From positions 38,106 through 102,105 of IMG/VR virus record IMGVR_UViG_2595698619_000001: DNA of 64,000 bases; one strand, written 5' to 3'. The position numbers and the translations under genes were made by a program. This document shows, in pieces, positions 1,977 through 18,509 of the stretch. Numbering within the stretch: position 1 is the stretch's first letter; every line of letters begins with the position of its first letter. Under the pieces are notes generated by a model. That model ran no database searches. It had not been told where the DNA came from and saw nothing but the letters and a program-made list of their open reading frames with translations. This stretch comes from a virus. Lineage: Duplodnaviria > Caudoviricetes.

Positions 1977-2033
1977 CTTGCGTTTGAGATATGAGCGTTG
2001 TCGGTTATCAAACTTCCCATCTATCGGAACCGC

Positions 2034-2468
2034 CTATTTTAGCTCGTGTCCGCAGTTCGGGCAGACGTCTGTATGCCAGCCTTCCTGGTGTCGGGACGCA
2101 TGGTCAGATGGAGTTTCGAGTGTGAGGTTCGACGGGCGATTATCCCATTTGATTCCCGTTTTGTGGTGAACCTGATTCCCGCATACCGCCTCGAACCCGA
2201 ACTGAGCAACAGCAACGAGACGATGGACGAGGACGCTCCTCGTTGTTTTCGGTTCACCGTCCCACGCCTGCCACAGTTCGTATCCGTCCTCGGTGGTCGA
2301 GAACGACGCGCGGTTGACTTCACGTTGCTCACGCTCGATTCCGAGTTTCTCCATCCAGTTGTATATCGTCTGCGCGGTCACGTCATACCTATCTGCGATT
2401 TGACCACCACTCAGGCCTTCTTCGCAGTAGAGACGACGGAGTGTTTCTTCGTCGCGGTATCCCGTCAT
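2034..2468 (-). CDS. HNH homing endonuclease with N-terminal HTH
   Basis: HTH (GQIADRYDVTAQTIYNW); VHRLVA...VHHK.GIKWDNRPSNL......H...H. Confidence 0.8.
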   Translation of the reverse strand: MTGYRDEETLRRLYCEEGLSGGQIADRYDVTAQTIYNWMEKLGIEREQREVNRASFSTTEDGYELWQAWDGEPKTTRSVLVHRLVAVAQFGFEAVCGNQVHHKTGIKWDNRPSNLTLETPSDHASRHQEGWHTDVCPNCGHELK

Positions 2469-2528
2469 TACATCTATTACTTCGGGTATAGATGTAAAGG
2501 TGTGACGTGGAGACACGAGCATTTTCTG

Positions 2529-2945
2529 TTACTGGAACCCGAGCTTGCCGCCACCTCCTGTCGAGTCACCGAACATGCCGCCCATGTCGCCCATCTGCTC
2601 TCTCATCTCCTCCATCATCTCCTCGCGTTCCTGCTGTCGTTCCTTGAGCCACTCGGTCATGTCGGGGCCGTAGATTTCCTTGCCGACCTGCGTGCCGACA
2701 CTGCCCATCAGTTGGGAGAGACCCGCAGTCGACTGGTCGGACGCCAGCTCGATTTCTTTCTCCCATGCGACGTGCAGGAGAGTGAGCGCCTCAGCACGAG
2801 TCAGGTCCACGCTCACAGGACGGTCCTCTTCCGTCTCACCGGCGCACTCGTCGCACGCCTCGTTCTCTCCGCACGTACAGGTCGCCCCGTCCGATTCATC
2901 CTCCGCGTCGTCGAACCGCTCAGCGTCGTTGTCTCTGTCGTTCAT
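2529..2945 (-). CDS. hypothetical protein with Cys cluster
   Basis: Acidic ORF with CTCG..ACDEC. Confidence 0.65.
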   Translation of the reverse strand: MNDRDNDAERFDDAEDESDGATCTCGENEACDECAGETEEDRPVSVDLTRAEALTLLHVAWEKEIELASDQSTAGLSQLMGSVGTQVGKEIYGPDMTEWLKERQQEREEMMEEMREQMGDMGGMFGDSTGGGGKLGFQ

Positions 2946-3160
2946 TACCCTTCCCTCGAGATGTGGATGAAGCGGTCACCGTGCACCGTCAGCACGCGCT
3001 CCTCATCAGCGTACACGTCGAGGAGCGGAGGTGCCTCGTCGGGAGTGATGGCGTCTCGGTGAGGTTCGACACGGGGGTACGAGGTCGACTGGAACCGCTT
3101 CGACTGAACCTCACCCTCGACCGTGCGCCACTTGGCGACGTAGGATTCTTCTCGACTCAT
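2945..3160 (-). CDS. small hypothetical protein
   Basis: Start MSREESYVAKW; tightly packed between neighbours. Confidence 0.55.
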   Translation of the reverse strand: MSREESYVAKWRTVEGEVQSKRFQSTSYPRVEPHRDAITPDEAPPLLDVYADEERVLTVHGDRFIHISREG

Positions 3161-3164
3161 CGGA

Positions 3165-3506
3165 TTACTCCTCGTCAGTCTCCGTCTCAGTCTCGTTGTC
3201 CTCCTCATCGGTGTCGTCTCCCTCGTCTGCCGCGTCGTCTGCGTCGTTGTAGTCGTACCCGATGGATACGGTGAAGCGGTCGTCGAACGCGGAGACGTCG
3301 GTGTTGTCCGGGTCGTGCTCCGGCGGCAACTTGTTCTCGAGAATGTCCTTCGCACGCTCGAGATTCTCGGCGGTGTCACCGTCGTCCTCCCACTCGATTT
3401 GGAAGGTCACCTTGCCTTCGTAGTGCGAGACGTTGACCGCGTCCGCCTCGAAGCGTTCCTCCAGCTCCTCCGCTCGTTCCGTGATTTGCTGTCCTAGGTC
3501 GTACAT
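3165..3506 (-). CDS. acidic hypothetical protein
   Basis: Start MYDLG overlapping the queF stop. Confidence 0.6.
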   Translation of the reverse strand: MYDLGQQITERAEELEERFEADAVNVSHYEGKVTFQIEWEDDGDTAENLERAKDILENKLPPEHDPDNTDVSAFDDRFTVSIGYDYNDADDAADEGDDTDEEDNETETETDEE

Positions 3507-3967
3507 TACTGGATACCTCCAACCCACGTCTGCGACGAGATACCACCGCGCGGATTCACGTCGAAGGCGACGTGGAGTCGCTTCTGCACCTCGTCCTCAT
3601 CGAGGTCCGGGTACAGGATTTCCGCGAGGTCCTGCCACACCTTCGCGGTGACTTCCTCGTGCGAGATTCGAGCGTCCTCGAACGACATGAGGTAGTACTT
3701 CAGCGACTTCAGTTCGACGATGAAGTCATCTGGGACGTACTCGATTTCTATCTCGCCGTAGTCGCGCACTCCTTCGCTCTCGACCTCATCCTCGTCGGCG
3801 TCCGGGTCCACGCCGTAGTCGACCGGACAGTTGGTCGAGAACTCCTTTGCGACGTGCCGGTCGGTCCTGTCCGTGTCAGGACGCGGGTTGGGCACTGCCT
3901 GTAGCACTTCGCCGTTGATAGGGTCGTAATCCGGGTTGAACCGGAAAGTCACTTCGTTGTCTCCCAT
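3506..3967 (-). CDS. queF: NADPH-dependent preQ0 reductase, QueF family (T-fold)
   Basis: EFS..CP...DY, QueF motif ELKSLKYY, SHEE, PRGGI. Confidence 0.85.
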   Translation of the reverse strand: MGDNEVTFRFNPDYDPINGEVLQAVPNPRPDTDRTDRHVAKEFSTNCPVDYGVDPDADEDEVESEGVRDYGEIEIEYVPDDFIVELKSLKYYLMSFEDARISHEEVTAKVWQDLAEILYPDLDEDEVQKRLHVAFDVNPRGGISSQTWVGGIQ

Positions 3968-4010
3968 CTGCGAATAGACGTTACTGACGGGAGGACGTTA
4001 ACCTGATTGT

Positions 4011-4595
4011 CTAAGATTCACCTCGTTTTTGGCTTGGCCACTTATGTTCAAATCCGGGCAGTGGGTCACCCATCCATTCTAAAATTCGCTGAGACTGCGC
4101 CGTTCCAAACCGAAGTTGACCTTCACTAAACTTAACCATCCACTTCTGTTCTTGAAAGATTCGTTCAAATAATCTCCGCCGTTCTTGCTGTGCATAATTC
4201 GAGATGAGCATGTTGGGAGTACCGATGGGAGTAGGACAGTAATGCCCGTCACAGCAATACCAAACTTTGAGTTTGAGGGGTGTTAGCGATAAGTCATCTG
4301 GGAATCTCTTACCACCATCTATGTACCAGTCAGAATAAGAATTAAATACAGGTGAAGATTTAGTCGACCACACCCAAGTTTGAGAGTAATTCTCAGACGG
4401 ATACTCCGACGATTTACGTTTGCTACCTTGTTTCACACCCAACGAATATTCCGAGAACTCATCATGCAACCACTCCAAGAACTCACGTTCGGTCAATTCA
4501 CATACGACCGAGCATGAATCTCCCCGTCGGTCCAAATACCCGTCACCAAGAAGTAACCCCTGTATAATATCGTCTTGCCTCTCTGTAAGTTCCAT
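4011..4595 (-). CDS. LAGLIDADG homing endonuclease
   Basis: GLLLGDGYL and WYCCDG helices; lower GC than flanks. Confidence 0.8.
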   Translation of the reverse strand: MELTERQDDIIQGLLLGDGYLDRRGDSCSVVCELTEREFLEWLHDEFSEYSLGVKQGSKRKSSEYPSENYSQTWVWSTKSSPVFNSYSDWYIDGGKRFPDDLSLTPLKLKVWYCCDGHYCPTPIGTPNMLISNYAQQERRRLFERIFQEQKWMVKFSEGQLRFGTAQSQRILEWMGDPLPGFEHKWPSQKRGES

Positions 4596-4756
4596 ACCAC
4601 AGGTATGACTTCGTCTGCATTAACCACGTTGAAACTACCCAGAAAAGACGGCGTTCTTAGCCCGGGACAGCCAGCTACTCAAAGAGCTGACCGGCGCGCT
4701 CGAACGTCGCCGCGAAGTCATCAGCGACACTGACCTTGTAACCGTTCTCGTTCAGG

Positions 4757-4927
4757 GTGTTGACGAACGAACGAGACAGAAAAGAATACGTGAAAGGGTT
4801 GTTCTCATCATTAGACGTTTCACCGCGTTTTCACAACGGAGTGGTGGGGTTTCGAGTAGACGACAGTGGCAAGCTATGGGATTATATGGGTGATGCCGTG
4901 CAGGGGTTCGAGTACAAATGGCCTTGA
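4757..4927 (+). pseudogene. C-terminal remnant of a second LAGLIDADG endonuclease
   Basis: Reads ...GVVGFRVDDSGKLWDYMGDAVQGFEYKWP*, which matches GQLRFGTAQSQRILEWMGDPLPGFEHKWP of the 4011-4595 protein; in-frame stop just upstream. Confidence 0.65.
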
Positions 4928-4932
4928 CAGGC

Positions 4933-5787
4933 TCAGAAATCTAATACATCTCTTCCTTGGGTGTTGAACGAGGCAGAAGACGGGTCGTAATTCATCACTA
5001 GCCTCTCAACAGATTTCTTTGAAGAATCACTTTGAGTAGTATAGTTACGGTCTCTGACCGTAACATCCCACTCACCGTTTTGCACCTCCTTTTCAAACGC
5101 AGGAGGTAACTCTTCATATGAGACGATGAACGACCCATCAATCTCACAAAGCACTTCGTAGAACCGTCCATGGTCGAAGTCTTCTTCATGCTCATAATAA
5201 GCATCTCCTACACGGTAGTACGGAGGGTCATAATAGAAGAGTGTACCAGCACGGTCATATTTCTCAGTCAGTTCAGCATAGTCGAGGTTTTCTATGATAA
5301 CCTGGTCAAATCTATTCTGAATCCTTTTAACCTGCTCCTTTGTTCTCTCGTACTTGTAAGTAATCTCATCAGCAGGACACTTCGTTGTTGAATTGATTCT
5401 AAAACCACCCCCATCAATTTTACCGGAGAAGGAGGTAGATTGGATGTAGAAGAACCTACCCGCTTTCGCTACAGGGTCCGTTGGCTCATCTTCCGACCGC
5501 ATATCCTCGACATATTCCTCATACAGTTCACGGGAGTATGGAGTTGATTCTAACCACTCGTACAACTCCTCACCTTGGTCACGGCAAACCTCAAAGAAAT
5601 TAACGACTCGACCGTAAACATCGTTATAGACCTCGATAGTAGAACGGGGTTTGTTGAATAAAACAGCAGCAGACCCACCGAAAGGTTCAACGTAGCACTC
5701 ATGCTCCGGCATATGCTCTATAATCCACGGAGCTATCGTTGTCTTACTACCCGGGTAGTTAATCGTACCGCTATTTTTCTTAGGCAT
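4933..5787 (-). CDS. D12-class (Dam-family) N6-adenine DNA methyltransferase
   Basis: YPGSK, YVEPFGGSAAV, VYND, DPPY; lower GC. Confidence 0.9.
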   Translation of the reverse strand: MPKKNSGTINYPGSKTTIAPWIIEHMPEHECYVEPFGGSAAVLFNKPRSTIEVYNDVYGRVVNFFEVCRDQGEELYEWLESTPYSRELYEEYVEDMRSEDEPTDPVAKAGRFFYIQSTSFSGKIDGGGFRINSTTKCPADEITYKYERTKEQVKRIQNRFDQVIIENLDYAELTEKYDRAGTLFYYDPPYYRVGDAYYEHEEDFDHGRFYEVLCEIDGSFIVSYEELPPAFEKEVQNGEWDVTVRDRNYTTQSDSSKKSVERLVMNYDPSSASFNTQGRDVLDF

Positions 5788-5789
5788 GG

Positions 5790-7034
5790 TTAGAAATCAA
5801 GAACCGATTGACTCTTTGATTCATATTCCTGTACGCTGGAGTCCTTCCCGCCCGCCCAATCCTGATAGGCGTCCGGGTCGAGGTCGAGCACCTCAAGTTC
5901 GTCTCCCTCGAGACGGTGCTGGAGTGCCATTTGCCGACGTTCCTCTACGTCGAGGTCGCGTAGCAGGTCGAGCATGACGTTCTTGAAGTGAATATACGAC
6001 CCGCTGAACTTGTACGTGGTCCCGTCGTAGTCCTTCAACTTGCGATAGACGCGAGCAGTCGCGGTGTCTCCCGATGCTTTGTCCAGCGAGTGCCTGAACC
6101 AAGTGGGGAACAGGTCGGGGATGTACCCCGAATATGCCTCGGTGAGGCGCACCTCTGCCGTCATGCGTGCGAGTGCGCCGGCGTATTTCCAGTATCGGTA
6201 GTTGCGCGTCGTCTGAGAGCGTCCCAACCACTTGTCGGCACGCGCCAGAGCATCGTAAGCGACGCCTGCCTCGAGACCTCGGAACTCCTTCGCCACCGCC
6301 TGGTCGAGCCAGATGACCAGGTCGTTCGGAGAGATGTCGTTGCCAGCGTACTTGTCGCCGCCGATGAGTTCCGGGATGGCGTCGAACTCTCCTTCCTCCC
6401 ACTCACGGTCGTCGAACCCGAGTGGAACGTCGCTCTCCGCCATCATCTGTAGGTCGTTGATGGCAGAACGCAGGTCAGGACGTTGTGCGAGGCGTTCCTC
6501 GTCATGCTCGTCCAGTTCGACACCCTCGGACGCCGCGACCTCTCGAATCTTCGCCGCCCGCGACCGCTTCCCAAGTTTGAATTTCTCGGTGTTCACCCGA
6601 TTCTTGATGCCGTCTGGCACGTCATACTCCTCGTTCGCCGTGAGGATAATCGGGTTCGCGGGGGAACTGAGCGCGTCGTACAGCGGTTGCTTGTTAGCAG
6701 CGTGGTGCCACCCGTCCACCTCGTCGAGAAGGACGAGTTGACGCTGACCGTCTGCCGGCGACGCGGCGATGCTCGCCGCCATCTCCTCAATATCGTCTGT
6801 CTTCCGCGCAGACGAGGCGTTGATTTGATTGAGCGGCATGTCGAGAACGTCAGAGACGACGTATGCCGTGGTCGTCTTGCCTGTCCCCGGTGGTCCCACG
6901 AGCAACTGCCCCTGGTCGCCCGGTTCCCACTCCTCTGCCCACTCCCGAATCCGGTCGAGAGCGGCGTTGTTTCCTTGAATCTCGCTGAACGATTCAGGAC
7001 GATACTTGTCTACCCAGGATTGATTCTCACTCAT
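5790..7034 (-). CDS. rfcL: replication factor C large subunit (clamp loader)
   Basis: WVDKYRP, GPPGTGKT, INASS.R, LLDEVD, DLRSAINDLQ. Confidence 0.9.
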   Translation of the reverse strand: MSENQSWVDKYRPESFSEIQGNNAALDRIREWAEEWEPGDQGQLLVGPPGTGKTTTAYVVSDVLDMPLNQINASSARKTDDIEEMAASIAASPADGQRQLVLLDEVDGWHHAANKQPLYDALSSPANPIILTANEEYDVPDGIKNRVNTEKFKLGKRSRAAKIREVAASEGVELDEHDEERLAQRPDLRSAINDLQMMAESDVPLGFDDREWEEGEFDAIPELIGGDKYAGNDISPNDLVIWLDQAVAKEFRGLEAGVAYDALARADKWLGRSQTTRNYRYWKYAGALARMTAEVRLTEAYSGYIPDLFPTWFRHSLDKASGDTATARVYRKLKDYDGTTYKFSGSYIHFKNVMLDLLRDLDVEERRQMALQHRLEGDELEVLDLDPDAYQDWAGGKDSSVQEYESKSQSVLDF

Positions 7035-7224
7035 AGGATTTGCTCACCTCATCGTCGTCCTCGACTTCCTGTTTCGCCATCTCGTACATCTCCTCCGCCG
7101 TCTCTTTCACGTCGTCCGTTCTTTCGCCTTCAGACTCCTGTACTGTCACCTCTATCTCCTGGTCGGATGTGGCCGAGTGAACGTAAATCCGCGGACGCTT
7201 GTCGGCATCGTTGCTGTTCGTCAT
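7027..7224 (-). CDS. small hypothetical protein
   Basis: Acidic ORF within the operon. Confidence 0.55.
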   Translation of the reverse strand: MTNSNDADKRPRIYVHSATSDQEIEVTVQESEGERTDDVKETAEEMYEMAKQEVEDDDEVSKSYE

Positions 7225-7226
7225 GG

Positions 7227-7724
7227 TCAGAAATCGAGTGGGTCCTCCACGGTGTAGTCGGGCTCCAGTTCACGCTCGTACACGACCATGCGATTGCCGC
7301 GGTCGGTGTAGTAGTAATCGACTGCACTGAACCCGTTATCCATCCAGAACTCCTCGAGGTCAGCAGTCGAGAGAACGTCTGCGACCATGACCTCCTTCCC
7401 GCGTTCCTCGGCGTACCGAACCGCCTCGTCGAGCAACTCGCTGCCATACCCCTCGTGACGGTCCCGAGCAGCGACAGCGATGTTACGGAGACACGCTTCC
7501 TCACGGGACAGGATGTCTGACTCGGCCCAAACCATGCACGCGCCAGACACGCGGTCTCCGCGCAGGAAATACAGGAGACGCCTGTCCTCGCGCCTGGCAC
7601 AACGCTCGACGTTCTCACGTCGAACGAACCAGTACAGGTCCTGGGTGATTTCCACGTCCTCGAAGAACGCTTCTATCTCCTCGAGACGCTCGTCGCCGGG
7701 TTCTGCGACCTTGATTTCTACCAT
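7227..7724 (-). CDS. GNAT-family acetyltransferase
   Basis: IAV...RHEGYGSELL (motif A), FW..NGF. Confidence 0.8.
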   Translation of the reverse strand: MVEIKVAEPGDERLEEIEAFFEDVEITQDLYWFVRRENVERCARREDRRLLYFLRGDRVSGACMVWAESDILSREEACLRNIAVAARDRHEGYGSELLDEAVRYAEERGKEVMVADVLSTADLEEFWMDNGFSAVDYYYTDRGNRMVVYERELEPDYTVEDPLDF

Positions 7725-10459
7725 GAGAGAACACCTCCGCTACCGTCGTCGCCATCGTCGTCGTCACTACCACCTGCGAACGGGTTGCTGTTGTTGCTGT
7801 CCTCCAGTTCGACACCCTCTGTCTGCGCACCTGCCGCCAGTTCGTCGAAGTCCCATCCGACCTCCTCGAGGATAGGACGTAGCGGACGGTCGAGCGTTTT
7901 CTCGATATGCTTCTCGGAGTCGAGGTCGAACCCGTCCGGAATGTCGTCCCACCACTCCAACGCGAGAACGTCGGTGTTGGGTTTCATCGCCGGCGTCTTC
8001 TTGATGTAGTAAATCCACGGTTGGTCACCGTGCGACCAGTCGTATCCGAGATGCTCGTTCGAGTAGATGGACGCTCGCACCGACAGCGTGGGCGACGAGT
8101 ACGAGTGAATCGGGTCGTTGATGGTGCCCGGTTTTGCGATTTTCCGCAGTTCTATGTCCTGACTGCGGATACGGTCACAGAGGTCCTTGATGTACGCGCT
8201 CACCTCGTCGAACCCCTCCGCGTTGAGAATCTTCTTGATGACTTCGGGTTGTGCCTCTTCGGTGAGTTCCGGGGAGTCACTGCGCTCTGACTCCATCCCG
8301 GTGATGTTTGGCACGGGGACGATGTTACCGTTCTCGTCCTTCATGTACTTCCCCTCCTTCCATACGCAACCGCCCGCGTACCGCTTCTTCTTGTTGTACT
8401 GGAAGAAACGACGGAAGAGTTTCTCAAACTCGAACGCCCACGCATGATTCTCGTCCTCGGGCAGGTTGTGAGGCAGTTCGCTCAAGTCGATGAACGGGTG
8501 GTCATCACCGAGACCTATGTCGTCTGCCGCACGCCCGATTTCTTCGTTGATACGACGCTCGACCTCCTTCCCGCGTTCGACGACCTTCTCCATCGTCTCA
8601 CGCTCGGACAGGTCCTCGAACTCTTCGGGGTCAGCGAGGGACACCATCACCGAGTCAGTGTCCCCGTAGAGCACCTCGTACCCGAGTTCTTCGCAAATCT
8701 CCACGCCCGTCCACAGGATGAACCTCGAGAGACCTGTGATAGTGTCACCCAGTTCGGGAGACGACAGGCGGTAGTATTTGTTGTTGCTCACACCGAAGAA
8801 GGAGTTCATAATGACCTTAACCGCACGCTGCTTGTGGTCCCACACCTGGTACATGGGCGTGTCAGGGTCGTACCGATTCCGGTTGTCCTTCATGTCCTCG
8901 CGCTCACTGAACAGGAGTTTGAGGTACTTCGGCATGATACCCTCGTCGTCGAGTTTCAGACCTTGCCCCTTCTTAGCGTCGAACTCCAGATGCTCACGCT
9001 TGATGGTCCCGCCGAAGTCGTCTTCCTTCGCCGGCATCCACGGAACGATAACGTCTGCCTCGTCGTTGTCGTCGGTCATCATCTCCTTCGAGATGTTCGC
9101 CGTGATAATCGAGGACGGGTAGAGTGACTTCAGGTCAATCACCCCGACCCACTCGGTGATACCGGACGACGGTGACAGGACGAGGCCTCCTTCCGCGTTG
9201 TCTACTTCCTCCGTGTCAGTCGAAGGCAGAATCTCATCGTCGCCTCGCCGGGACAGGACGAACCCGTCCACGAGACGCATGGCGGAGAACGTGTCGTAAA
9301 TCGGGACACCGGTGAGGTCCGACAGTTGGTAGAAGAACCCGTGGATGTCCGCCATGTCGTCGAGAGCGACGAGCAACTGCGTGTCTATGATGTTATACGC
9401 CGTGAGACGACTGCGGTCCTTCTCGTACCCGTCATGGATGTTGATGTCTTCGACCTTGCCGACGCCCAATTCTTCCTGGGACACGTAGTCGAGCGACTTC
9501 GACCGCCAGTCGCTGAACACCATCTGGTCGCAGTACGCCCTCATCATGTCGAACCCCGGCAACCCGTCAATCCGCGCGACGGTCGTCTCCAGGTCGTTCC
9601 GGTAGTTGTGCGTGATTCCGCCGATGTCCGACATACGCCAGCGGTCGACTCCGTCCACCTTCTCCATGCGATTGAGGAGATATCGGTGGTCGAAGTCCTC
9701 CCAATTCCATCCCGACAGGAGGTCTGGGCGCACGTCCTCGATGTACGAGAGGAAGGCGTTGAGGAGCGCAGATTCGCTGTCAGCAATCGTCAAGTCGATG
9801 TCTGCGTTGACGTAGTCGGGTGCTAACTCGTGCCCGTTCCAGTGGTCACCGAGATGGTGTTTCACGTCCTTCCCGTCTACCGAGCGGTCAGGGTCGAGAA
9901 CGAAAACGTCGTACTGCTCCTCCCGCGTGTCGTAGGCGGAAATCATTATGACCTCGCCCGTCGCTTCCTCGGTAAACTCGTCGAAACCCACGTCGTAGTC
10001 GGGTAGCGCCTCGATGTCCGCCATGACGACTCGAGGAGTAATCGACTCCACGTCCGACTCCTCGATGTCTGTCTCCACCTCAGATATGTCGCAGTGTTTC
10101 CTATCCGGCACGCGGATGTAACCCGACAACCCGTAGTCGACCGACACGCGACGACTGAACGGGATGTCTGCTTCGTAGGTCACCGAGAAGTCGTCTCGAA
10201 TCTGCCCGACGTTCTTCGGGAGTTTCGTCACTACCTTCTTCAACGGTCGACCGTCGTACCCTTCGTACCCATGCTCCTCACGCACCACGCAGTCCTGGTC
10301 GGCGCTCTCGTGAGGCGGGACGAAACAGTACGGTTCTGTACCACCGATTATCGTTAGGTTCCGCTCGCCGTCTTCGTCGCGTCCGACGACTCTGACGACG
10401 ACTTCACCATCGTTGTCCTTGTAGTCGAGGTCCGTAACACGGACGAGTTTATCGCTCAT
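7718..10459 (-). CDS. polB: family B DNA polymerase
   Basis: Exo DIE, GWN..FD; pol DLKSLYPS, K..MNS.FG, YGDTDS, KKRYA; no intein evident. Confidence 0.97.
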   Translation of the reverse strand: MSDKLVRVTDLDYKDNDGEVVVRVVGRDEDGERNLTIIGGTEPYCFVPPHESADQDCVVREEHGYEGYDGRPLKKVVTKLPKNVGQIRDDFSVTYEADIPFSRRVSVDYGLSGYIRVPDRKHCDISEVETDIEESDVESITPRVVMADIEALPDYDVGFDEFTEEATGEVIMISAYDTREEQYDVFVLDPDRSVDGKDVKHHLGDHWNGHELAPDYVNADIDLTIADSESALLNAFLSYIEDVRPDLLSGWNWEDFDHRYLLNRMEKVDGVDRWRMSDIGGITHNYRNDLETTVARIDGLPGFDMMRAYCDQMVFSDWRSKSLDYVSQEELGVGKVEDINIHDGYEKDRSRLTAYNIIDTQLLVALDDMADIHGFFYQLSDLTGVPIYDTFSAMRLVDGFVLSRRGDDEILPSTDTEEVDNAEGGLVLSPSSGITEWVGVIDLKSLYPSSIITANISKEMMTDDNDEADVIVPWMPAKEDDFGGTIKREHLEFDAKKGQGLKLDDEGIMPKYLKLLFSEREDMKDNRNRYDPDTPMYQVWDHKQRAVKVIMNSFFGVSNNKYYRLSSPELGDTITGLSRFILWTGVEICEELGYEVLYGDTDSVMVSLADPEEFEDLSERETMEKVVERGKEVERRINEEIGRAADDIGLGDDHPFIDLSELPHNLPEDENHAWAFEFEKLFRRFFQYNKKKRYAGGCVWKEGKYMKDENGNIVPVPNITGMESERSDSPELTEEAQPEVIKKILNAEGFDEVSAYIKDLCDRIRSQDIELRKIAKPGTINDPIHSYSSPTLSVRASIYSNEHLGYDWSHGDQPWIYYIKKTPAMKPNTDVLALEWWDDIPDGFDLDSEKHIEKTLDRPLRPILEEVGWDFDELAAGAQTEGVELEDSNNSNPFAGGSDDDDGDDGSGGVLSW

Positions 10460-10480
10460 CTAATCACCTGTTGTCGGTCG

Positions 10481-11092
10481 TCAGTAATCAAGCACGTCAT
10501 CCACGTCAACCTCGTCTATGGCTTCGGGGTCAGGACACTCAATCCTACCCGTTTCGACTAACCGGTGATGGGTGGCACACAGGGTGATGAGATTGTCTCT
10601 GGTGTGTGCATTATCCGGGTCGTCGAACTTCTTTACCTTGACGAGATGATGAACGTGCAGCGGGTCACTGACCATCTGCCCGCGTCCGCACACCCTGCAC
10701 TCGTAGTTGTCTCGTTCGAGTACCATCTCACGTTTCTCGTCCCAGGTAGAACCGTATCGAGGACGCTCGTACCCGTCACGGTAGTTCGGGTTGCCTTCGC
10801 CCTTGATTGTCTCCGACTGAGCGTCGCGCATACAGTCGCCTCCGCAGGTTTCCTGGGTACGATACTCCCAACACTCGAACTCTTCACCGCAGATACGACA
10901 CTCTCGTGTCTCTTTAGCGAGCGACTCATCATGCACCATAGTGTGGTGACGCCTCATCCCCGATTCCGATTCAAAACCGTCGCCGCAGGTCGGACAGTGC
11001 CACGGTAACCAATCGGAGTGTAGATTCTTCTTGTGACGGATGAGGGTTGAATCGCTTGCCAGTTCATCACCGCAGTATTCGCACTTCGGCAT
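10481..11092 (-). CDS. HNH endonuclease with C2H2 zinc fingers
   Basis: Two C2H2 fingers; RD...C..CG..LHVHH...NLITLC..HH. Confidence 0.85.
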   Translation of the reverse strand: MPKCEYCGDELASDSTLIRHKKNLHSDWLPWHCPTCGDGFESESGMRRHHTMVHDESLAKETRECRICGEEFECWEYRTQETCGGDCMRDAQSETIKGEGNPNYRDGYERPRYGSTWDEKREMVLERDNYECRVCGRGQMVSDPLHVHHLVKVKKFDDPDNAHTRDNLITLCATHHRLVETGRIECPDPEAIDEVDVDDVLDY

Positions 11093-11889
11093 TAGTATTT
11101 CCAGTACGAGAGATTCGCCATGCTCGTCTCCTGTGCCGGGCAGACAAACTCATAATCGCAAAATCCACAGTGCCCGCCCGGTTTCGCCGGGAACTCTCCT
11201 GCGCCCATCGCTTGCAGGAGCGAACGAGCGTACTGCTTCATCTGACTCCACTGCTCCTCGTCGGGAATCCGGTTCGCTATCTCGCCGTCACCGAGGTAGA
11301 CGAACGTGACGTACTCCGGGTACTCTCCGTACTTGTTGAGGTAGGCGCCAGCGTACACCATCCCCTGAATCAGTTCGTCGCGCTTCCGGTAGTCGCGCAC
11401 GTTCCCATCGCTGTCCTTTCGCTTGCCCGTCTTCCAGTCGAGGACACCTTCCTCGGTGACGATGTCCATCTTCGCGTTGAATCCTTTGTTGACCTCGCCA
11501 CCGACATGATACTGATGCTCGACCTCGAACCCGCGAAACGTCATGTCCGCACCGAACTTCTCGATGTACTTCGCGGCGTTGTCGCAGCAATCCAACCCGT
11601 TCTCGTACATCCACTCGGGGACGTCCGGGTTCTTCTCGCGGTACCTCTCCTTGAACCGGTGCGACAAGATACCGCTGTCTCGTATGCTCTCGTCGTCTAA
11701 GAGCACCTCCTCAATCGCCTCGTGAACTGCGGTGCCCATCTCTCGATACCCCTTCTCCGGTTTCGTTCTGTCCTCGTCGCGTGCGTAGTCGAACCACCAA
11801 CTGAGTGGACACTGCGCGAACTTCTTGACGCGCGACGCTGACAGGTAGTCGTCGAATAGTTCGTCTGGTACGTAGCGTTCCTTAGTCAC
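11092..11889 (-). CDS. PD-(D/E)XK nuclease, Cas4/AddB-like with Fe-S staple
   Basis: LSAS...QCP, GTAVH..IE, E..D..DWKTG, Q..VY, C..C.Y...C. Confidence 0.85.
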   Translation of the reverse strand: MTKERYVPDELFDDYLSASRVKKFAQCPLSWWFDYARDEDRTKPEKGYREMGTAVHEAIEEVLLDDESIRDSGILSHRFKERYREKNPDVPEWMYENGLDCCDNAAKYIEKFGADMTFRGFEVEHQYHVGGEVNKGFNAKMDIVTEEGVLDWKTGKRKDSDGNVRDYRKRDELIQGMVYAGAYLNKYGEYPEYVTFVYLGDGEIANRIPDEEQWSQMKQYARSLLQAMGAGEFPAKPGGHCGFCDYEFVCPAQETSMANLSYWKY

Positions 11890-12199
11890 GGTTACTCCAC
11901 CTCATTTCTGCTTTTTCTTTTGCTGCTGCGTCCTTCATCGAGCGACCTCCTGCCGCGTCCATGTTTGTACCGTACTTCTCCATGAGGTTGACGTTCTCGG
12001 ACAATCCGAGCGACGTGTCAACCTTCGAGGTCCAGTCAGTGACCTCGTAGTACACCGCCGCGCCCTTGACGACCTGCCACTGAATCAGCGTCAGGTTATC
12101 GTCGTTCTGATTCCCCATGGGCAGACGACGTATCTCGTCGTCCGTGAGGCGCGCTTGGCCGATGGGGACTGACTGTCCACAGCACGGGCACGTTGGCAT
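11882..12199 (-). CDS. hypothetical protein
   Basis: N-terminal CPCCG; operon packing. Confidence 0.6.
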   Translation of the reverse strand: MPTCPCCGQSVPIGQARLTDDEIRRLPMGNQNDDNLTLIQWQVVKGAAVYYEVTDWTSKVDTSLGLSENVNLMEKYGTNMDAAGGRSMKDAAAKEKAEMRWSNRD

Positions 12200-12200
12200 T

Positions 12201-12389
12201 TTACTGGATGTCGTCGTCGAAGGTGTCCATCTCGTCGTACATCTCGTCTATCTCATCGAGTTTCGCCAGCGCCTGCTCCTTCGACTTCTCGTGTACCTGC
12301 ACCAGGTGCTTCAGTGCGTCCTTGCGCGAGTCGAAGTCAGTGTCGTGGTCGAAGCAGTAGTATCGACTGAAGTCACCCGAGGGTTTCAT
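12201..12389 (-). CDS. small zinc-finger-like protein
   Basis: Start MKPSG; C..H...F......H....H pattern. Confidence 0.55.
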   Translation of the reverse strand: MKPSGDFSRYYCFDHDTDFDSRKDALKHLVQVHEKSKEQALAKLDEIDEMYDEMDTFDDDIQ

Positions 12390-13369
12390 CGCTCGTACCC
12401 CTCCAGCGAGACGTACCGTGCGACGTGCAGGTCCGCGAGGAGCGAGTGGAACTGAACGTGCGGGTTCGCACCACGCATGGCACGCCAGTTCGTCTCCGCG
12501 AGTTTGTCGAGACACTTCGCTTTCACGTCACCGGGTAGGTCCTGCCGCTTGATGACTCGGAGGAACGAGTCGCAGAGTTGGTTCGTCGGGACGCCCTCCT
12601 TGAGAACCTCCACGTCGAGTTGCCGCATGGCATCGTCCAGGTCACCCTCGACTGCGGTGTTGACGATTTGCTCAACGAGCGCGTCGTCGACCGTCGAGAC
12701 GACCACGTTGACGCCGTTCTCGTCAATCTCACCCTCGTATGCCGCCGCCTGCATGCTGTTGATGAGTTTGCGAGCGTCGCCGCCTGCCGCGTTGACCATC
12801 AGTTTCAGCGTGTCGTCAGCGATGGTCAGACCTTCCTGCTCCGCGACGTTCTGCCCGATTTGGTACAGGTCGTCGTCCGTGAGCGGCGAGATGCTGAACG
12901 GGGCGCACCGCGACTGGATAGGCCCGATAATCTGCGACAGGTAGTTGCACGAGAGGAAGAACCTCGTCACGTCCGCGTGGTCCTCCATGATACGCCGGAG
13001 TGCAGTTTGCGCGTCTTTCGTGAGCTGGTCAGCCTCATCGAGGAATACGATTTTGTACTGATGGTCGCCAATCGTACCCTGGACGGCGTAGTTCTTCACC
13101 TTGTCGCGGATGGTGTCAATCCCACGCTCGTCGGAGGCGTTCAGTTCGAGGATGTTATTCCGCCAGTTGTCCTCGCCGTACTTCTCCTTGGCGAACGCCT
13201 GGATGATTGCTGTCTTCCCGATTCCTTGCTTGCCGGCGAAGACGACGTGAGGCACGTCCTCGGTGCCGAGGAACTTCCTCATCCGCTTCACCACTTCCTC
13301 GTGCCCAACTATGTCGTCGAGCGTTTGAGGGCGATACTTTTCGACCCAGATTTTGTCGCTGACACTCAT
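12386..13369 (-). CDS. rfcS: replication factor C small subunit
   Basis: WVEKYRP, G..GIGKT, ELNASDERGID, LDEAD, SRC arginine finger. Confidence 0.95.
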   Translation of the reverse strand: MSVSDKIWVEKYRPQTLDDIVGHEEVVKRMRKFLGTEDVPHVVFAGKQGIGKTAIIQAFAKEKYGEDNWRNNILELNASDERGIDTIRDKVKNYAVQGTIGDHQYKIVFLDEADQLTKDAQTALRRIMEDHADVTRFFLSCNYLSQIIGPIQSRCAPFSISPLTDDDLYQIGQNVAEQEGLTIADDTLKLMVNAAGGDARKLINSMQAAAYEGEIDENGVNVVVSTVDDALVEQIVNTAVEGDLDDAMRQLDVEVLKEGVPTNQLCDSFLRVIKRQDLPGDVKAKCLDKLAETNWRAMRGANPHVQFHSLLADLHVARYVSLEGYER

Positions 13370-13435
13370 GCTTCGTATGTTGTTATTCGCAAAGGGTTAT
13401 CAGTCGTTTCGTCGAGAGAACGGGTCGCTGCTGGC

Positions 13436-14026
13436 TTACCCGTTCACTACGTCCTGAACGATGTCCAGGACCTCCTCACGGACCTCCTTCTTCGACTGCT
13501 CGCCGTCCACGACAGCGTACTCCTTCTCGTCGGCGAGGTCCATCATGTACGAGTAGTTCTCCTTGACCTGTTCGAGCATCTCGCGCTTCTCGTACTTCTC
13601 CTCACCGTCGGAGCGTTCGAGCGCCGTGTCCACGGAGATGTCCAGGTAGATGGTGAGGTCAGGTCGGATATTCCACGGAGACATGACACCCGCCATCCAG
13701 TCGACCGGGTCGTCCAGTTCGTCCTGCAACTGCACGGGTTGATACGCGAACGTGGAGTCGGTGAACCGGTCGGAGACGACGACCTTCCCCGTCTCGAGGT
13801 GCGGTTTGATGAACTCTTCTATGTGGTAGTGCCTGTCCGCCATGAACAGGAAGAAGTCGGTGAACGCCGGCGTATCGCTGCGTAGCGCCTTGCGCACCTG
13901 CTTCCCCGTCCAGAACTCGGACGGCTCGCACGTCGTCACGGCACCGAACTTCCGCTTGATGGCCTTGACGACGAGCGTCTTCCCCGCGCCGTCGAGACCT
14001 TCGACAGTGATGAACGTTCCTGACAT
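13436..14026 (-). CDS. tmk: thymidylate kinase
   Basis: FITVEGLDGAGKT, LFMADR, SDRF.DST.AYQ. Confidence 0.92.
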   Translation of the reverse strand: MSGTFITVEGLDGAGKTLVVKAIKRKFGAVTTCEPSEFWTGKQVRKALRSDTPAFTDFFLFMADRHYHIEEFIKPHLETGKVVVSDRFTDSTFAYQPVQLQDELDDPVDWMAGVMSPWNIRPDLTIYLDISVDTALERSDGEEKYEKREMLEQVKENYSYMMDLADEKEYAVVDGEQSKKEVREEVLDIVQDVVNG

Positions 14027-14028
14027 GG

Positions 14029-14481
14029 TTAGAACCCCAGCACGTCGTCGCCAGTAACCTCAGACGCCGGGTCGCCCAGGCGATTGAGGAGGCGTCGTCC
14101 TTCCTCGGTGATGTAGTAGTACGACCGCCGTCCGTCCTTGCGTTCGTTCGCGTACCCCGCCTTGAGGAGCGCGGAGGTCGCAGGGGATGGCTCGAAGTCA
14201 CCGCCCGCCGACAGTTCGAGCAGGTCGTAGTTGCTCAGCATCCGCCGCGGAGAATCCGCGTCGTTGTTGTCGAGCAGGTACAGGCACCGATGAGTCGGGT
14301 CGTCGTCCTGTACGGGCAGGTCCGGGTTGTACGAGGTCTCCTCGGACCCAGACAGGTCGCGTGGTTCGGGGTCGCCGTCCCTTTCGAGGACCCGAATATC
14401 ACCGTCGAACTCCGGGTTGTCGTACAGGAACGATACTGCTTCGTCGGTCGTGTCGAACGTCTTGATTTGTTCTTGCGTCAT
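14029..14481 (-). CDS. winged-helix DNA-binding protein (putative)
   Basis: C-terminal L..AGY..ERKDGRRSYYYITEEGR wing motif. Confidence 0.6.
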   Translation of the reverse strand: MTQEQIKTFDTTDEAVSFLYDNPEFDGDIRVLERDGDPEPRDLSGSEETSYNPDLPVQDDDPTHRCLYLLDNNDADSPRRMLSNYDLLELSAGGDFEPSPATSALLKAGYANERKDGRRSYYYITEEGRRLLNRLGDPASEVTGDDVLGF

Positions 14482-14482
14482 G

Positions 14483-15634
14483 TTAGTCCTCTATCCACTC
14501 CGCTTTCCCGCCGCCCCAACCGAAGGTCGGGCAGGATTCAGGTTCCTCCTTTCGCGTGCAGAGACCCAGCGACTGAATCGACTGGCACGACATATCGGAG
14601 TACCCGCGGTTGTGGATTTGATTCAGGAACTTCCGTGTCTTGCTCCGGTCGGCGTCAACCCACCCGAGCGACATGAACATCTCCTCTATCTCTTCCTTGG
14701 CGAACCCTGCGTTGAACAGGAGAACCGCGCAGTTGAACCGCACCATGTGGTGCGGATTCGGTTGTACGATACGCTCGTACATACAGGGCATCTGGAGTAG
14801 TTCCTTCAGCATGTTCAGGATGCCCTGACGTTCGTAGTTCTGTACGTCTATCTCGACCTCGACCTCTCCACGCACTGTCGCCCGTTCCTCCAGGTAGTCG
14901 TCGTACACCTGCATTTCCGGACGTTCCCCATCGGGCAGAGGAATCTTACGAGGCGATTCCGACCAGTCGAGAAGGTCCTTCACCGTCAGGTCCTTCACGT
15001 CGTCCCGCGTGAGAGGCACCGTGTAGAGGTTACACGCCATCGTATGCGTGTCCTCGGTGATGCTCTCACCGCGGTCGGAGTCAACGTACACGCGCCTCAC
15101 GTTCGGTATCCTGAGGATACGCTGCACGTCACCGATGAGTTGAATATCGAGCGTGTCGAGGTCCAGTTCATCGAGGTATCGTCTGACCGTCGTAGCGAGG
15201 TGCTGACGCGCCTGCAACTGCTCCTGGTACAGAAGGTGGAGGTGTAACCCGAACCCAGAGAAAACGCCCACGAGCGGTATCTGTTCGGCCTCTGCGCGCT
15301 CGGCGACCCTACGCGCGTCCTCGACGACCTCACCCAGGACCTCCTCAGCGAGGTCCAGGTCCTCACGCATGAGCATGACCTTCTCATCGTCGCGGTCAGT
15401 ACGTGGGAACGCTGCTTCCTTCATGGGTGAGTCGAGGTCAATCGAGATTTTGTCCGAGACGACACCGCCGCCTTCTGTCAGGTCGAAGTGCGAGATGGTG
15501 GCGTACAGGTTACGTTCGCCTTCGCACTCCTCGATGACTGCGTCCAGTTCACTCTCGCTATGGACGGGCCACTGCACCGGGTTACCGACCCGACGCGGGA
15601 ACTTGCCGTACAGCAGTTTCTGAACTGGGTCCAT
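14483..15634 (-). CDS. archaeo-eukaryotic primase: PriS domain fused to a PriL/PriX-like C-terminal domain
   Basis: IDLD, FSG.GLHL, RILRIPN; C-terminal PCM..H..RF...GY...SC. Confidence 0.8.
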   Translation of the reverse strand: MDPVQKLLYGKFPRRVGNPVQWPVHSESELDAVIEECEGERNLYATISHFDLTEGGGVVSDKISIDLDSPMKEAAFPRTDRDDEKVMLMREDLDLAEEVLGEVVEDARRVAERAEAEQIPLVGVFSGFGLHLHLLYQEQLQARQHLATTVRRYLDELDLDTLDIQLIGDVQRILRIPNVRRVYVDSDRGESITEDTHTMACNLYTVPLTRDDVKDLTVKDLLDWSESPRKIPLPDGERPEMQVYDDYLEERATVRGEVEVEIDVQNYERQGILNMLKELLQMPCMYERIVQPNPHHMVRFNCAVLLFNAGFAKEEIEEMFMSLGWVDADRSKTRKFLNQIHNRGYSDMSCQSIQSLGLCTRKEEPESCPTFGWGGGKAEWIED

Positions 15635-15648
15635 AGCGAGTCAGGTGC

Positions 15649-16506
15649 TCAGTTCTTGTTGACCGGACCGATAACGTTCCGGAGCACCTGACCTTCGTAC
15701 TCGTCCTGCACCACGCAGATGGGGTTGCCGTCGTCCGTCTCGATACGGACATCCCCCGACACCGTGCCGAAGAGTTCCTCGAACCCCTGGTTGTACTCGT
15801 TCGACAGGTCGGGACCTTCGACGCTATCCGCGTTGAGCGCACCCCACGCGGCATTCCGTCGCTCGTCCTTCCCGACACTCAGGTACAGGTCACCGTCCTG
15901 GATGGTAATCGGGTAGAACTTCGTATCGTCGTCGTCGTTGACGATGTCTACGATACGCTGAACCTCGCGCACGCCCGTCTCGATGGTCGCCTCCATCGGT
16001 TCGCCGTCACCGGTGAGGAAGGAGTGCGTCTCGTCGTCGAACCGACCCACAGCGTCGAGCGGGACCTCATCGAGGTTCGACTCGCTCGCGGGCAGCATGA
16101 CGCGCGTCTGAATCGCTCCGTGGAACTGGAGCGCGTGACAGAGGCGGTCGTCCTCCTCACCGAGGAGCGTCAGTTCGACCGTACTGCTCGGGTCGTCCTG
16201 CGCGTAGTTGAGATACGTGAGGAAGTCCTCGACGTTGATAATCGCCTCCGCTGTCCCGTTGTTGTCCTCCACGAGGAGGTCTTGGTCGACCTCGACCGAG
16301 TCGAGGAATCCCGCACCGAAGGTGGAGTACGAGATGACGCTGTTGTTCTGCTTGGAGGCGAGGAACCGCGCCTCACCGCCGCCCACGTTGACGTACACCT
16401 CCGAGTGCACAGCGTCGCCGGAAGACGCCTTGAGCGACGCCTTCTTAATCATCTGTTCGAGTCGGTTCGCCTTCGCCGTGATAGTTGCCTTGGTGACTTC
16501 AGTCAT
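15649..16506 (-). CDS. divergent PCNA-like sliding clamp
   Basis: About 285 aa; N-terminal pattern SEVYVNVGGGEARFLAS..NNSVISYSTF..GFLDS parallels PCNA; both RFC subunits encoded nearby. Confidence 0.6.
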   Translation of the reverse strand: MTEVTKATITAKANRLEQMIKKASLKASSGDAVHSEVYVNVGGGEARFLASKQNNSVISYSTFGAGFLDSVEVDQDLLVEDNNGTAEAIINVEDFLTYLNYAQDDPSSTVELTLLGEEDDRLCHALQFHGAIQTRVMLPASESNLDEVPLDAVGRFDDETHSFLTGDGEPMEATIETGVREVQRIVDIVNDDDDTKFYPITIQDGDLYLSVGKDERRNAAWGALNADSVEGPDLSNEYNQGFEELFGTVSGDVRIETDDGNPICVVQDEYEGQVLRNVIGPVNKN

Positions 16507-16996
16507 CGTTGTTCTCGTCGTTGTCGTCCGCACTAAGTTCGTTGTCGAGCTGTGCCCTTATCATCTCGGAGCCAGTGTCCCCGAGGTATCTGTCCAGAAC
16601 GTCGAGCGCGGTGACGTTCTCTCCAGCGAGCGAGTTAACGTCCTCATGCACGTCCTCCTCGACGTACACGGAGACGTACTCATCCTCGGGAATCTCCATG
16701 CGGTGCGCTTCCACGTCGTCGGGCAGGAGGACACGTAGCGCGTCGCTGAGCGTGTACTCCGTGCCGTCCACTGCCTCCTTCAGCGTCGTCCGCCAGTCGC
16801 GTGGGACGCGGATGCCCTTAAGGTTCCGCTCCTCGGTGATTTCCATCTTCATCACCAGCCCGCGTCCGATGCCCTCGATGGACAGCAGGTCCTCGTCGTC
16901 CTCCTCGAGAACCTCCTCGGCGGATTCGTACCCTGCGTCTCGCAGGATGCCCGCCGTCTTCGGACCCACGCCCGCGAGACGTTCGAGCTCAGTCAT
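16499..16996 (-). CDS. helix-hairpin-helix DNA-binding protein (RadA N-terminal-like)
   Basis: LAGVGPKTAGILRDAGY and LSIEGIG HhH pair. Confidence 0.7.
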   Translation of the reverse strand: MTELERLAGVGPKTAGILRDAGYESAEEVLEEDDEDLLSIEGIGRGLVMKMEITEERNLKGIRVPRDWRTTLKEAVDGTEYTLSDALRVLLPDDVEAHRMEIPEDEYVSVYVEEDVHEDVNSLAGENVTALDVLDRYLGDTGSEMIRAQLDNELSADDNDENNDD

Positions 16997-18509
16997 CGCT
17001 CCACCGTCCCGGGTTACCTTCGACGACTCGCACGTCGCCGTCCAGCACTTCTTCGAGCATCGGGTCCTTGCCTTCCTCTTCGAGGTCGCGGATTTCCTCG
17101 CAGACCTGCTCGTGCTTGTCGAACGTGGGATACCGCAGACCCGTGTAACTGTACTTCGACAGCCCGTTCTTCTGAAGTTGACCGACGGGTTCGCCGTCAG
17201 GACCTTCGACGAACCGCAGGACCTGGTCGACCTTGTAGGCGTTGTCTCGCTCGCCCACAGGTTTCTTCGGGTTCCCTTCGTCACCCTCCATGATGGCCTC
17301 GTAGTCGTCCGTCTGCATGGCCGTCCAGTAGAAGTGGAACGGGGTGTCAATCATTACCTCGCGGAACCGCTTGTTGTGGTACCGCTTGATGACTTTCCAG
17401 TCGCTCTCACCCGAGCGTCCCATGTTGGACGACAGGTTGACTTCGTCGAGCGTCTTCCCCTGGTACGCCTTGCTGACGTACTTCTGCTTCGACCACTCCC
17501 ACATCTCACTCATCGAGTCGACTACGATGGTGCCGCGGTGACCTTCCTCGAGGTAGCGGTGAAGCACGGAGATGGCCTCGTTGAGCGCCTCTCGCGCCTC
17601 GTCGTAGTCGTCGGGTTGCCAGATGTACGTGACCTTATCCTCGAACTTCGAGGCGAGGTTGTGCGCCTTGCCCTCCGTGTCTATGATACAGACAGGTTGA
17701 GGCATGGTGAACCCGAAGTGGGTCTTGCCCTTGCCGGGTTCTGCCCACCCGAGGATACGCCAGAGGTACGGTTGCTCTGCCGCCTCGTCGGTGTCCATGG
17801 CGTTCGGAGCAACGTCTCCGATGTCCACGGCCCCGATGCTGCTCACGTCGTCGTCTACCGAAGCAGTTTGCGTCGTCTCGGGTTCGTCGTCCTGCTCGGT
17901 CGTGTCGGACGTGTCCTCGTCGGCGAGGTTGTCTACCCCAATCTCGTCGAGTTCATCGGGGTCGACTTCATCGACCGCGTCGTCCACCTCATCCTGAGTC
18001 GCTCCGTCGTCCTCGTCGTCCATGCCCCACCCGCCGCTGTCGTCGGTCGACTCGTCGTCGGATGTCTCGTCCTGCGTCTCGTCGTCCTCGTTCTGCGAGG
18101 TGGCGTCGGAGTCGTTTCCCGCGTCCTCATCAGCATCGTCCTCGACCTGATTCAGACGACGCTCGTACACTTCCTGTGCGGACGAGCGCGTGTCCTGCTC
18201 CATCGCTTCGCGCAGAACGTCGGCGTCGTCGAGCTCCTTGTACTTGTCCTCGATGGTGGACACAGTGATGCTCTCGACGTTCTCCGCGTCAACGACCGAC
18301 GCGAACTGCTGCGCGAACCCGAGTTCTTCCTCGGTTTCGTCGTCGCGGTCATCACCGTCAGCGAGGTCCTGCACGTCAGAACCCCATCCTCCAGCGTCGT
18401 CAGACGTGTCCTCGGTGGTGTCCCCCTCCACCTCGGTCGTTTCCTCGTCGGCATCGTCTGCCTCGAGGTCCTCTGCCTCCAGTTCGTCGTCGTCCATTCC
18501 CCAGCTCAT
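16989..18509 (-). CDS. P-loop ATPase, Sak4/AAA_24-like, with long acidic N-terminus
   Basis: PGKGKT, IDTEG, IVVDS; roughly 240 aa D/E-rich N-terminus. Confidence 0.7.
   Translation of the reverse strand: MSWGMDDDELEAEDLEADDADEETTEVEGDTTEDTSDDAGGWGSDVQDLADGDDRDDETEEELGFAQQFASVVDAENVESITVSTIEDKYKELDDADVLREAMEQDTRSSAQEVYERRLNQVEDDADEDAGNDSDATSQNEDDETQDETSDDESTDDSGGWGMDDEDDGATQDEVDDAVDEVDPDELDEIGVDNLADEDTSDTTEQDDEPETTQTASVDDDVSSIGAVDIGDVAPNAMDTDEAAEQPYLWRILGWAEPGKGKTHFGFTMPQPVCIIDTEGKAHNLASKFEDKVTYIWQPDDYDEAREALNEAISVLHRYLEEGHRGTIVVDSMSEMWEWSKQKYVSKAYQGKTLDEVNLSSNMGRSGESDWKVIKRYHNKRFREVMIDTPFHFYWTAMQTDDYEAIMEGDEGNPKKPVGERDNAYKVDQVLRFVEGPDGEPVGQLQKNGLSKYSYTGLRYPTFDKHEQVCEEIRDLEEEGKDPMLEEVLDGDVRVVEGNPGRWSDD

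Follow-up and report, generated by a model that had tools for sequence, protein, structure and literature searches.

At least eight proteins of a haloarchaeal tailed virus end in the same short C-terminal tail, which is likely a clamp-binding peptide that docks on the virus's own divergent sliding clamp. The stretch of DNA analyzed here (hereafter the window; 64,000 nucleotides) covers bases 38106-102105 of the 102,105-bp virus record IMGVR_UViG_2595698619_000001, which has direct terminal repeats; unless noted otherwise, coordinates below are those of the window. We assign the virus to the haloarchaeal tailed viruses resembling Haloarcula vallismortis tailed virus 1 (HVTV-1), in the family Druskaviridae, the region encoding the tails sharing 87% DNA identity with HVTV-1 and HVTV-2 and ~79% with HCTV-1 and HCTV-16 (Druskaviridae). 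The whole 102-kb genome holding the window is designated G000, and related genomes and loci G001-G003 and L015-L022 (G002 being L015, and G003 being L016). The tail follows the consensus x-[V/P]-L-[D/E/S/G]-[F/Y/W]-COOH and sits on a flexible, mostly acidic linker. The sharing of this tail among carriers is confirmed, and its interpretation as a clamp-docking peptide appears well supported by comparative evidence.

An earlier note on this DNA had quoted six such C-termini, all of which are present exactly as written in the translated genes of the window, each on the minus strand. They belong to a D12-class N6-adenine DNA methyltransferase (4933-5787; PF02086, E 1e-25; ending ...GRDVLDF), the large subunit of the RFC clamp loader (RFC-L, 5790-7034; phrog_11838, E 8e-178, with AAA and Rad17 matches; ...SQSVLDF), a GNAT acetyltransferase (7227-7724; PF00583, E 7e-8; ...EDPLDF), a family B DNA polymerase (PolB, 7718-10459; PF00136 and PF03104; ...GGVLSW, preceded by an acidic Gly-rich linker), an HNH endonuclease (10481-11092; PF01844 and PF13894; ...DDVLDY), and a 150-amino-acid protein, p150 (14029-14481; ...DDVLGF). 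The family labels proposed for the first five hold by Pfam and PHROG matches, with an N-terminal C2H2 zinc finger added to the HNH endonuclease. With this zinc finger, the HNH protein of the window spans 203 a.a., and the HNH proteins of its relatives comprise 98 a.a. and bear the same tail. The winged-helix label of p150 could be retained in part; the C-terminal half adopts this fold in an AlphaFold model (predicted local distance difference test, pLDDT, 75.9), with no Pfam match to the protein and with Foldseek matches to ArsR/MarR/PadR/TubR proteins that are weak yet consistent (best E 2.9e-3). Residues 146-150 are modeled with pLDDT <50, and the p150 tail is probably disordered, which would fit a flexible tether.

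Two further carriers lie outside the window, extending the set from six proteins to at least eight. The first, just upstream, is DpdA4, a DUF6610 protein (G000 35454-36683, minus strand; PF20314, E 3.9e-59) ending ...DNVLEF, which is 87% identical to the HVTV-1/2 protein and neighbored by QueC, QueD, QueE, QueF, and FolE. It is the orthologue of HVTV1_69, named DpdA4 and predicted to be a DNA guanine transglycosylase for preQ1 (PMC10516641, in part). The second is another D12 methyltransferase (G000 24224-25156, minus strand; GC 0.412; ...TNVLDF), found by a six-frame scan after the codon-usage gene caller had missed the gene; a six-frame scan of HVTV-2 (bases 1-100000) gave no eighth tailed open reading frame (ORF) matching it. 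All carriers are DNA-metabolism proteins, none of the structural-module genes of G000 having the tail. Two related endings were noted beside these carriers. A 138-a.a. protein of the 7-deazaguanine cluster (2529-2945, minus strand; no Pfam match) has a near-miss tail, ...GGGGKLGFQ, which runs one residue past the aromatic, and its relatives end RVGFQ and PLGFQ. A 439-a.a. HTH protein (L011:13638-14957, plus strand; in G000 outside the window) ends ...DRVLDEF, identically to HVTV-2 gp27, with a PIP-like L-x-x-F-COOH spacing unlike that of the local tail (PIP, PCNA-interacting protein motif).

A scan of C-termini for enrichment over chance, which the earlier note had proposed for related viruses, returned a clear excess in the virus itself. 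Among the 114 genes of G000, a set of crude calls comprising 107 scored ORFs and seven added by hand, seven end in L-x-[FWY]-COOH, against 0.56 expected from the internal frequency (binomial P 1.7e-6). Across the same proteins, the fuller pattern [VP]L[DGSE][FWY] occurs 14 times, and half of these occurrences (7/14) are C-terminal. When all six-frame ORFs of at least 50 a.a. in the window are considered, 7/409 end in L-x-aromatic, corresponding to the six named genes and one antisense ORF. The independently annotated HVTV-2 has seven six-frame ORFs with the full tail, all of which are annotated coding sequences (CDS), and two further L-x-aromatic ORFs that lack annotation. The position of the proteins in one module, which close relatives would inherit all together, might be taken to mean that the tail arose by chance, or by common descent, and has no function. 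We regard this explanation as extremely improbable, given that the carriers are of unrelated folds, that the excess holds even for the loose motif, and that the tail is found on a low-GC mobile methyltransferase cassette, with the local variant on three unrelated methyltransferase families.

Conservation in orthologues, on which the earlier note had staked its proposal beforehand, was also observed. Wherever the loci of relatives (HVTV-2, HCTV-16, HCTV-1, and metagenomic relatives) contained an orthologue of a carrier, the tail was kept, with exceptions in p150 that are given below. These orthologues end SVLDF in RFC-L, DPLDF in the GNAT protein (identical in 6/6 loci with a match), GVLSW in PolB, VLDY or PLDY in the HNH protein, VLGF, VLRF, or VLEF in p150, NVLEF or DVLDF in DpdA4, and DVLDF in the methyltransferase. 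For p150, few homologues were detected (five in one search), none beyond Druskaviridae other than one in G001, and positional analogues in other lineages were not detectably related.

The proposed receptor of the tail is the product of a gene in the same module (15649-16506, minus strand), which the earlier note had described as a divergent PCNA-like protein of the same operon, a description borne out by its predicted structure. The AlphaFold model, built from a 71-sequence alignment, has a pLDDT of 96 and a predicted template-modeling score (pTM) of 0.91, and Foldseek comparison with the PDB gave 1rwz as the best match (E 6e-14; TM 0.71/0.82; ~10% identity), the best fold matches among those listed being PCNAs, including Haloferax PCNA (3ifv). 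By sequence, the protein had no Pfam match (PF00705, PCNA_N, having no match in G000), a phmmer search of PDB sequences returned nothing relevant, and the profile of its family (106 representatives at 50% clustering) reached only E 0.038, to T. kodakarensis PCNA2. Given that the fold comparison yielded PCNAs where these sequence-only tests were weak, we take the identity of the protein as settled, with the model supporting a sliding clamp of two-domain PCNA fold. The clamp itself is already known, a "distant homolog" of sliding clamps having been reported in HVTV-1 by Kazlauskas et al. 2016 (PMC4889955, in part), and the HVTV-2 orthologue is annotated as PCNA; the shared tails go unmentioned in the papers that our searches returned. 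Both the large and small RFC subunit genes are encoded near the clamp, in the same module.

We next consider how the tail compares with the PIP motif of cellular clamp partners. PolB and RFC-L of cellular archaea bind clamps via C-terminal peptides (PMC7776575 and PMC4929162, each in part). Aligned in PIP register, the tail reads S/x3-[V/A/P]4-[L/M]5-x6-aromatic7-COOH, and it resembles a PIP core that ends after the first aromatic, as do the ...TLFDF and ...SLFDF ends of some cellular archaeal RFC-L. All eight carriers have V or P at position 4, where a hydrophobic residue is expected, and F, Y, or W at position 7, although the P of the GNAT protein is atypical for a PIP at this position. The glutamine of position 1 is missing, its place being taken by S in RFC-L (with Q at position 2), G in the methyltransferase, V in the GNAT protein, S in PolB, V in the HNH protein, and T in p150; broader RFC-L relatives often have it, e.g., QESAMSW and QASVxxW. 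The second aromatic or hydrophobic residue expected at position 8 is also missing, the chain ending at position 7 in 8/8 carriers. An alternative register, with the L as position 4 (L-x-aromatic spacing), is less favored; RFC-L relatives read Q1-x-S3-[A/V/I]4-x-x-W7, which leads us to favor placing V/A at position 4. The motif had been called non-canonical, which stands with regard to the missing Q1 and second aromatic but is too strong with regard to its location, position 4, and position 7, where it resembles the PIP core. The tail may thus be called PIP-like in its presumed action, but it is not a canonical PIP.

A contrast is seen with the host and with related viruses that lack a clamp. 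Cellular haloarchaeal RFC-L ends uniformly in QxGLxxF[FLMT], as seen in 11 complete, high-GC, acidic examples from the metagenome by-catch, and the same PIP consensus is quoted for Haloferax (PMC7776575, in part). For the viruses, six haloarchaeal tailed viruses (four Hafunaviridae genera, Halomagnusviridae, and Soleiviridae) gave no match, across their full records, to the profile of the clamp family or to PCNA_N of Pfam (PF00705). PolB ends in a host-type QxGLxx[FY]x in 5/6 of these clamp-less viruses (QTGLAAFC, QRGLADYV, QSGLGAFI, QSGLAQFM, and QTGLGAFV). Of 39 CDS inspected in a stretch of the clamp-less HRTV-24, only three have a terminal aromatic; the tail is missing there from the DpdA4-like protein, the primase, and the HNH protein, and in HRTV-27 from the methyltransferase adjoining PolB. 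These comparisons support the view that the type of tail tracks possession of a viral clamp. They also bear on the possibility that the tails are ordinary PIP-like peptides docking on host PCNA rather than on the viral clamp. Every infected cell contains host PCNA, the tail in register resembles a PIP core (cf. the ...TLFDF ends noted above), and the D12 relatives of the methyltransferase bear host-type PIPs. However, haloarchaeal RFC-L shows a uniform QxGLxxF[FLMT] that is copied on the PolB of clamp-less viruses, whereas the clamp-encoding viruses are without QxGLxxFx and their tails split into lineage variants, which is hard to explain with a conserved receptor. Docking on host PCNA therefore seems unlikely.

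The lineage variants came from a set of loci assembled mainly through RFC-L. A locus search with the clamp alone returned only close relatives, and locus scans gave two loci with P0003 and none with P0006. A search with the RFC-L alignment gave four viral loci; among the 80 metagenome loci returned, six (L017-L022) have viral-type RFC-L and the rest cellular RFC-L, 28 of these by-catch cellular loci serving as the host comparison. A viral-type clamp is encoded in each of G000-G003, L018, and L020, and the clamps of the distant clamp-encoding viruses are 31-42% identical to that of the window. The proteins of each lineage end in a local form of the tail. G001 follows the pattern [PV][LM][ED][WY], with NPLEW (PolB), DVLDY (RFC-L), NPMEY, and DPLEW. 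In L019, the tails are GSAFDW (PolB), DSALSW (an N6_N4 methyltransferase), DSATDW (a 70-a.a. protein), and ESAMSW (RFC-L). G002 has SAASADW, SAAEVTW (a Dam-family methyltransferase), SAAGTSW (RFC-L), and SASSTSW, with PolB ending ...DWGW, and seven of its genes end in W against 1.0 expected. G003 has SALDW, SSAITW, GGMSW, EADSW, GAMSW, and EATDW, with two N6_N4 methyltransferases among the carriers and six genes ending in W against 0.7 expected. More broadly, 117 of the 120 viral RFC-L homologues listed end in W (103) or F (14). PolB bears the local tail in 7/8 lineages encoding a viral-type RFC-L, together with a clamp where the locus spans that region.

Tail similarity within genomes also favors docking on the viral clamp. 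Taking all aromatic-ended proteins of eight genomes or loci, tail identity over five positions is 0.588 within a genome and 0.43 between genomes, a difference reached by 20/5000 label shuffles, although this test counts sequences and not events. Several points weigh against this explanation. Because the tail variants track the clades of the clamp, with G002 and L018 grouped at 100/99 support, only some two or three tail switches can be counted as independent. The split G003 PolB terminates in ...SDPFSD, and loci L017 and L019 do not span the clamp gene. Among the p150 proteins, the alignment ends in F in 5/7 and in V in 2/7 (VLDV and VLEV), and the 128-a.a. p150 homologue of G001 is without the tail. 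With regard to the clamp-less controls, the PolB of HATV-2 carries neither a host-type PIP nor the viral tail, and the control polymerases are only ~25% identical, confounding the contrast with phylogeny. The gene sets are crude ORF calls to which low-GC genes had to be added manually, and the clamp is put forward as receptor from co-occurrence only.

The methyltransferases suggest that genes entering these genomes acquire the tail. All five methyltransferase genes in G000-G003 (PF01555, PF02086, and PF05869) bear the local tail, as does that of L019; a search with PF00145 found none. The presence of the tail on three unrelated methyltransferase families implies repeated acquisition. Among the 120 D12 homologues of the window methyltransferase listed, 31 have a host-type Qxx[LVIM]xx[FYW] in the last 16 residues, 57 retain a Qxxh remnant only, five end in VLDF or VLNF, five end in W-COOH, and 22 have none of these. 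Given that the C-termini of relatives have a host-type PIP there, the viral tail sits at the position of the PIP in this family. The D12 C-termini also suggest that clamp tethering of Dam-like enzymes may be widespread in haloarchaea and their viruses. Many of the D12 homologues listed, including a few named from haloarchaeal genomes, terminate in a host-type PIP such as ...NQSGLEAFE or ...GQSGLNAYQ, and another large group ends Q-x-T-L-x-E-V.

The window methyltransferase has a GC content of 0.444, and the neighboring LAGLIDADG endonuclease one of 0.45, compared with 0.576 for the genome. This low-GC pair (4011-5787, minus strand) lies on the opposite side of RFC-L relative to HVTV-2, whose orthologue of the methyltransferase is 64% identical and ends TDVLDF. 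These features suggest that the pair is a mobile cassette, yet one with the local tail. The view that the low-GC methyltransferase acquired its tag is thus reasonable, considering its base composition and the host-type PIPs on other members of its family. The same had been supposed of the HNH endonuclease, for which a recent acquisition is unsupported, its GC content (0.549) being not notably low and its Druskaviridae orthologues sharing the tail.

Two other explanations concern the partner and the purpose of the tail. In the T7 replisome, acidic tails ending in an aromatic play a part, and the halovirus tails, being acidic with a terminal aromatic, could in principle bind another viral hub, such as the helicase-like AAA protein, a single-stranded DNA-binding protein, or the body of the clamp loader, all the more as any tail that co-occurs with the clamp also co-occurs with the whole replication module. 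We consider this quite unlikely, as PolB and RFC-L, which are classic clamp binders, both carry the tail, the PIP of PolB and of the methyltransferase family gives way to the tail, and no alternative receptor was identified. The tail might also be no docking peptide at all, but instead mark proteins for degradation, sorting, or packaging, or aid the solubility of halophilic proteins; other kinds of short C-terminal signals are known. Such a role appears very unlikely given that the tail is limited to DNA-metabolism proteins, occupies the PIP position in three protein families, and is absent from clamp-less relatives.

Docking on the viral clamp can be envisaged as follows. The viral RFC (5790-7034 and 12386-13369) would load the viral clamp, and the tail would insert into a hydrophobic pocket of the latter, with PolB and the clamp loader using it as expected for such proteins. 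The two Dam-like methyltransferases, DpdA4, the HNH endonuclease, the GNAT protein, and the winged-helix p150 would ride the viral clamp behind the fork. Tail and clamp together would constitute a private docking code, given the departure of the tail from the host PIP (QxGLxxFx) and the low identity (~10%) of the clamp to PCNAs. The contact between tail and clamp, its site on the clamp, and its orthogonality to host PCNA are what we infer from these comparisons. More tentatively, and with some doubt, the clamp-encoding haloviruses may each keep a code orthogonal to host PCNA that drifts between lineages, so that incoming genes must adopt the local tail, self-marking enzymes (the Dam-like methyltransferases and DpdA4) are confined to clamp-bearing DNA, and a clamp-tethered p150 couples late transcription to replication, as gp33 and gp55 do in T4.

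If docking on the viral clamp is correct, it would represent the first counterpart of the T4 clamp "toolbelt" in an archaeal virus. It would also exemplify a viral docking code kept apart from that of the host, and provide a mechanism for the efficient post-replicative marking of viral DNA. HVTV-1 carries preQ1 at ~30% of G residues, and both preQ1 insertion and adenine methylation are proposed or known to follow replication (PMC10516641, in part). Clamp tethering would offer a simple reason why both modifications reach new viral DNA efficiently, and the local C-terminal tail variant would furnish a sequence rule for predicting clamp clients among unannotated halovirus genes.

The carriers within the window lie in a DNA-metabolism module on the minus strand (window 1-19,500), which comprises genes for 7-deazaguanine synthesis, the clamp loader, PolB, a Cas4-like nuclease, thymidylate kinase, primase, the clamp, and a helicase-like AAA protein. 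QueD, QueC, and QueF (preQ1 synthesis; 757-3967, minus strand; labels from the HVTV-2 annotation) adjoin the replication genes, as in HVTV-2. The RFC small subunit (12386-13369, minus strand; PF08542 and AAA) has no tail and ends ...SLEGYER. The archaeo-eukaryotic primase, with fused small and large subunit regions (14483-15634, minus strand; phrog_9660; HVTV-2 gp100 annotation), ends ...GGKAEWIED in the window, without a terminal aromatic. Across most clamp-encoding lineages, the primase C-terminus is GW(G/S)GGKAEW plus 1-3 further residues, independent of the tail variant. The Cas4-like PD-(D/E)XK nuclease (11092-11889, minus strand) has a distinct aromatic C-terminus, [VI]x[YW]xx[YF], which is kept in all lineages, and an aromatic (...NWYPY) likewise closes the Cas4 homologue of the clamp-less HRTV-24. 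Both the Cas4-like end and the ...AEW end of the primase were considered as extra tails and set aside, being unchanged across the lineage variants; the former is probably not a clamp tail.

Literature searches, with PMC10516641 (Data S1, S15) and the supplements of PMC4889955 outside their scope, returned no account of C-terminal tails shared between proteins of haloarchaeal viruses, or of PIP variants in these viruses. The term "PIP" is absent from the part of PMC4889955 so covered, and "pcna", "pip-box", and "clamp loader" are absent from PMC8651126.

Compared with the PIP box (Qxxhxxaa), the halovirus tail similarly occupies the extreme C-terminus of PolB and RFC-L and places a hydrophobic residue before an aromatic. 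It differs in that Q1 is absent or displaced in most carriers, there is no second aromatic, and position 5 is L or M rather than polar. It also does not match QxGLxxFx, and its presumed receptor shares ~10% identity with PCNAs. A parallel for the coupling of DNA modification to a clamp is found in eukaryotes, where the maintenance DNA methyltransferase DNMT1 is tethered to PCNA. In both cases, a DNA-modifying enzyme would be coupled to the replication clamp, with new DNA marked right behind the fork, although the domain of life and the enzyme families differ, and the halovirus coupling would serve self-marking or anti-restriction rather than epigenetic inheritance. Within archaea, NucS and NreA are non-replisome proteins, one of them a nuclease, that are recruited to PCNA by C-terminal PIP motifs (PMC4929162, in part); unlike the halovirus carriers, they are cellular proteins with canonical PIPs that bind cellular PCNA.

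The closest known system is the gp45 clamp of T4/RB69, with the shared C-termini of gp43, gp55, and gp33 (T4 as described in PMC2988020). As in T4, the halovirus encodes both a clamp and its own loader, and a single hydrophobic-acidic peptide recurs at the C-termini of several unrelated proteins. One client class in T4 is transcriptional, which the halovirus winged-helix p150 may parallel. The two systems differ in that the halovirus infects archaea and has a PCNA-fold clamp and an RFC-type loader, and in that docking on the halovirus clamp is putative. The halovirus client list is also longer and consists mostly of DNA-modifying enzymes (two methyltransferases and DpdA4), together with the GNAT and HNH proteins.

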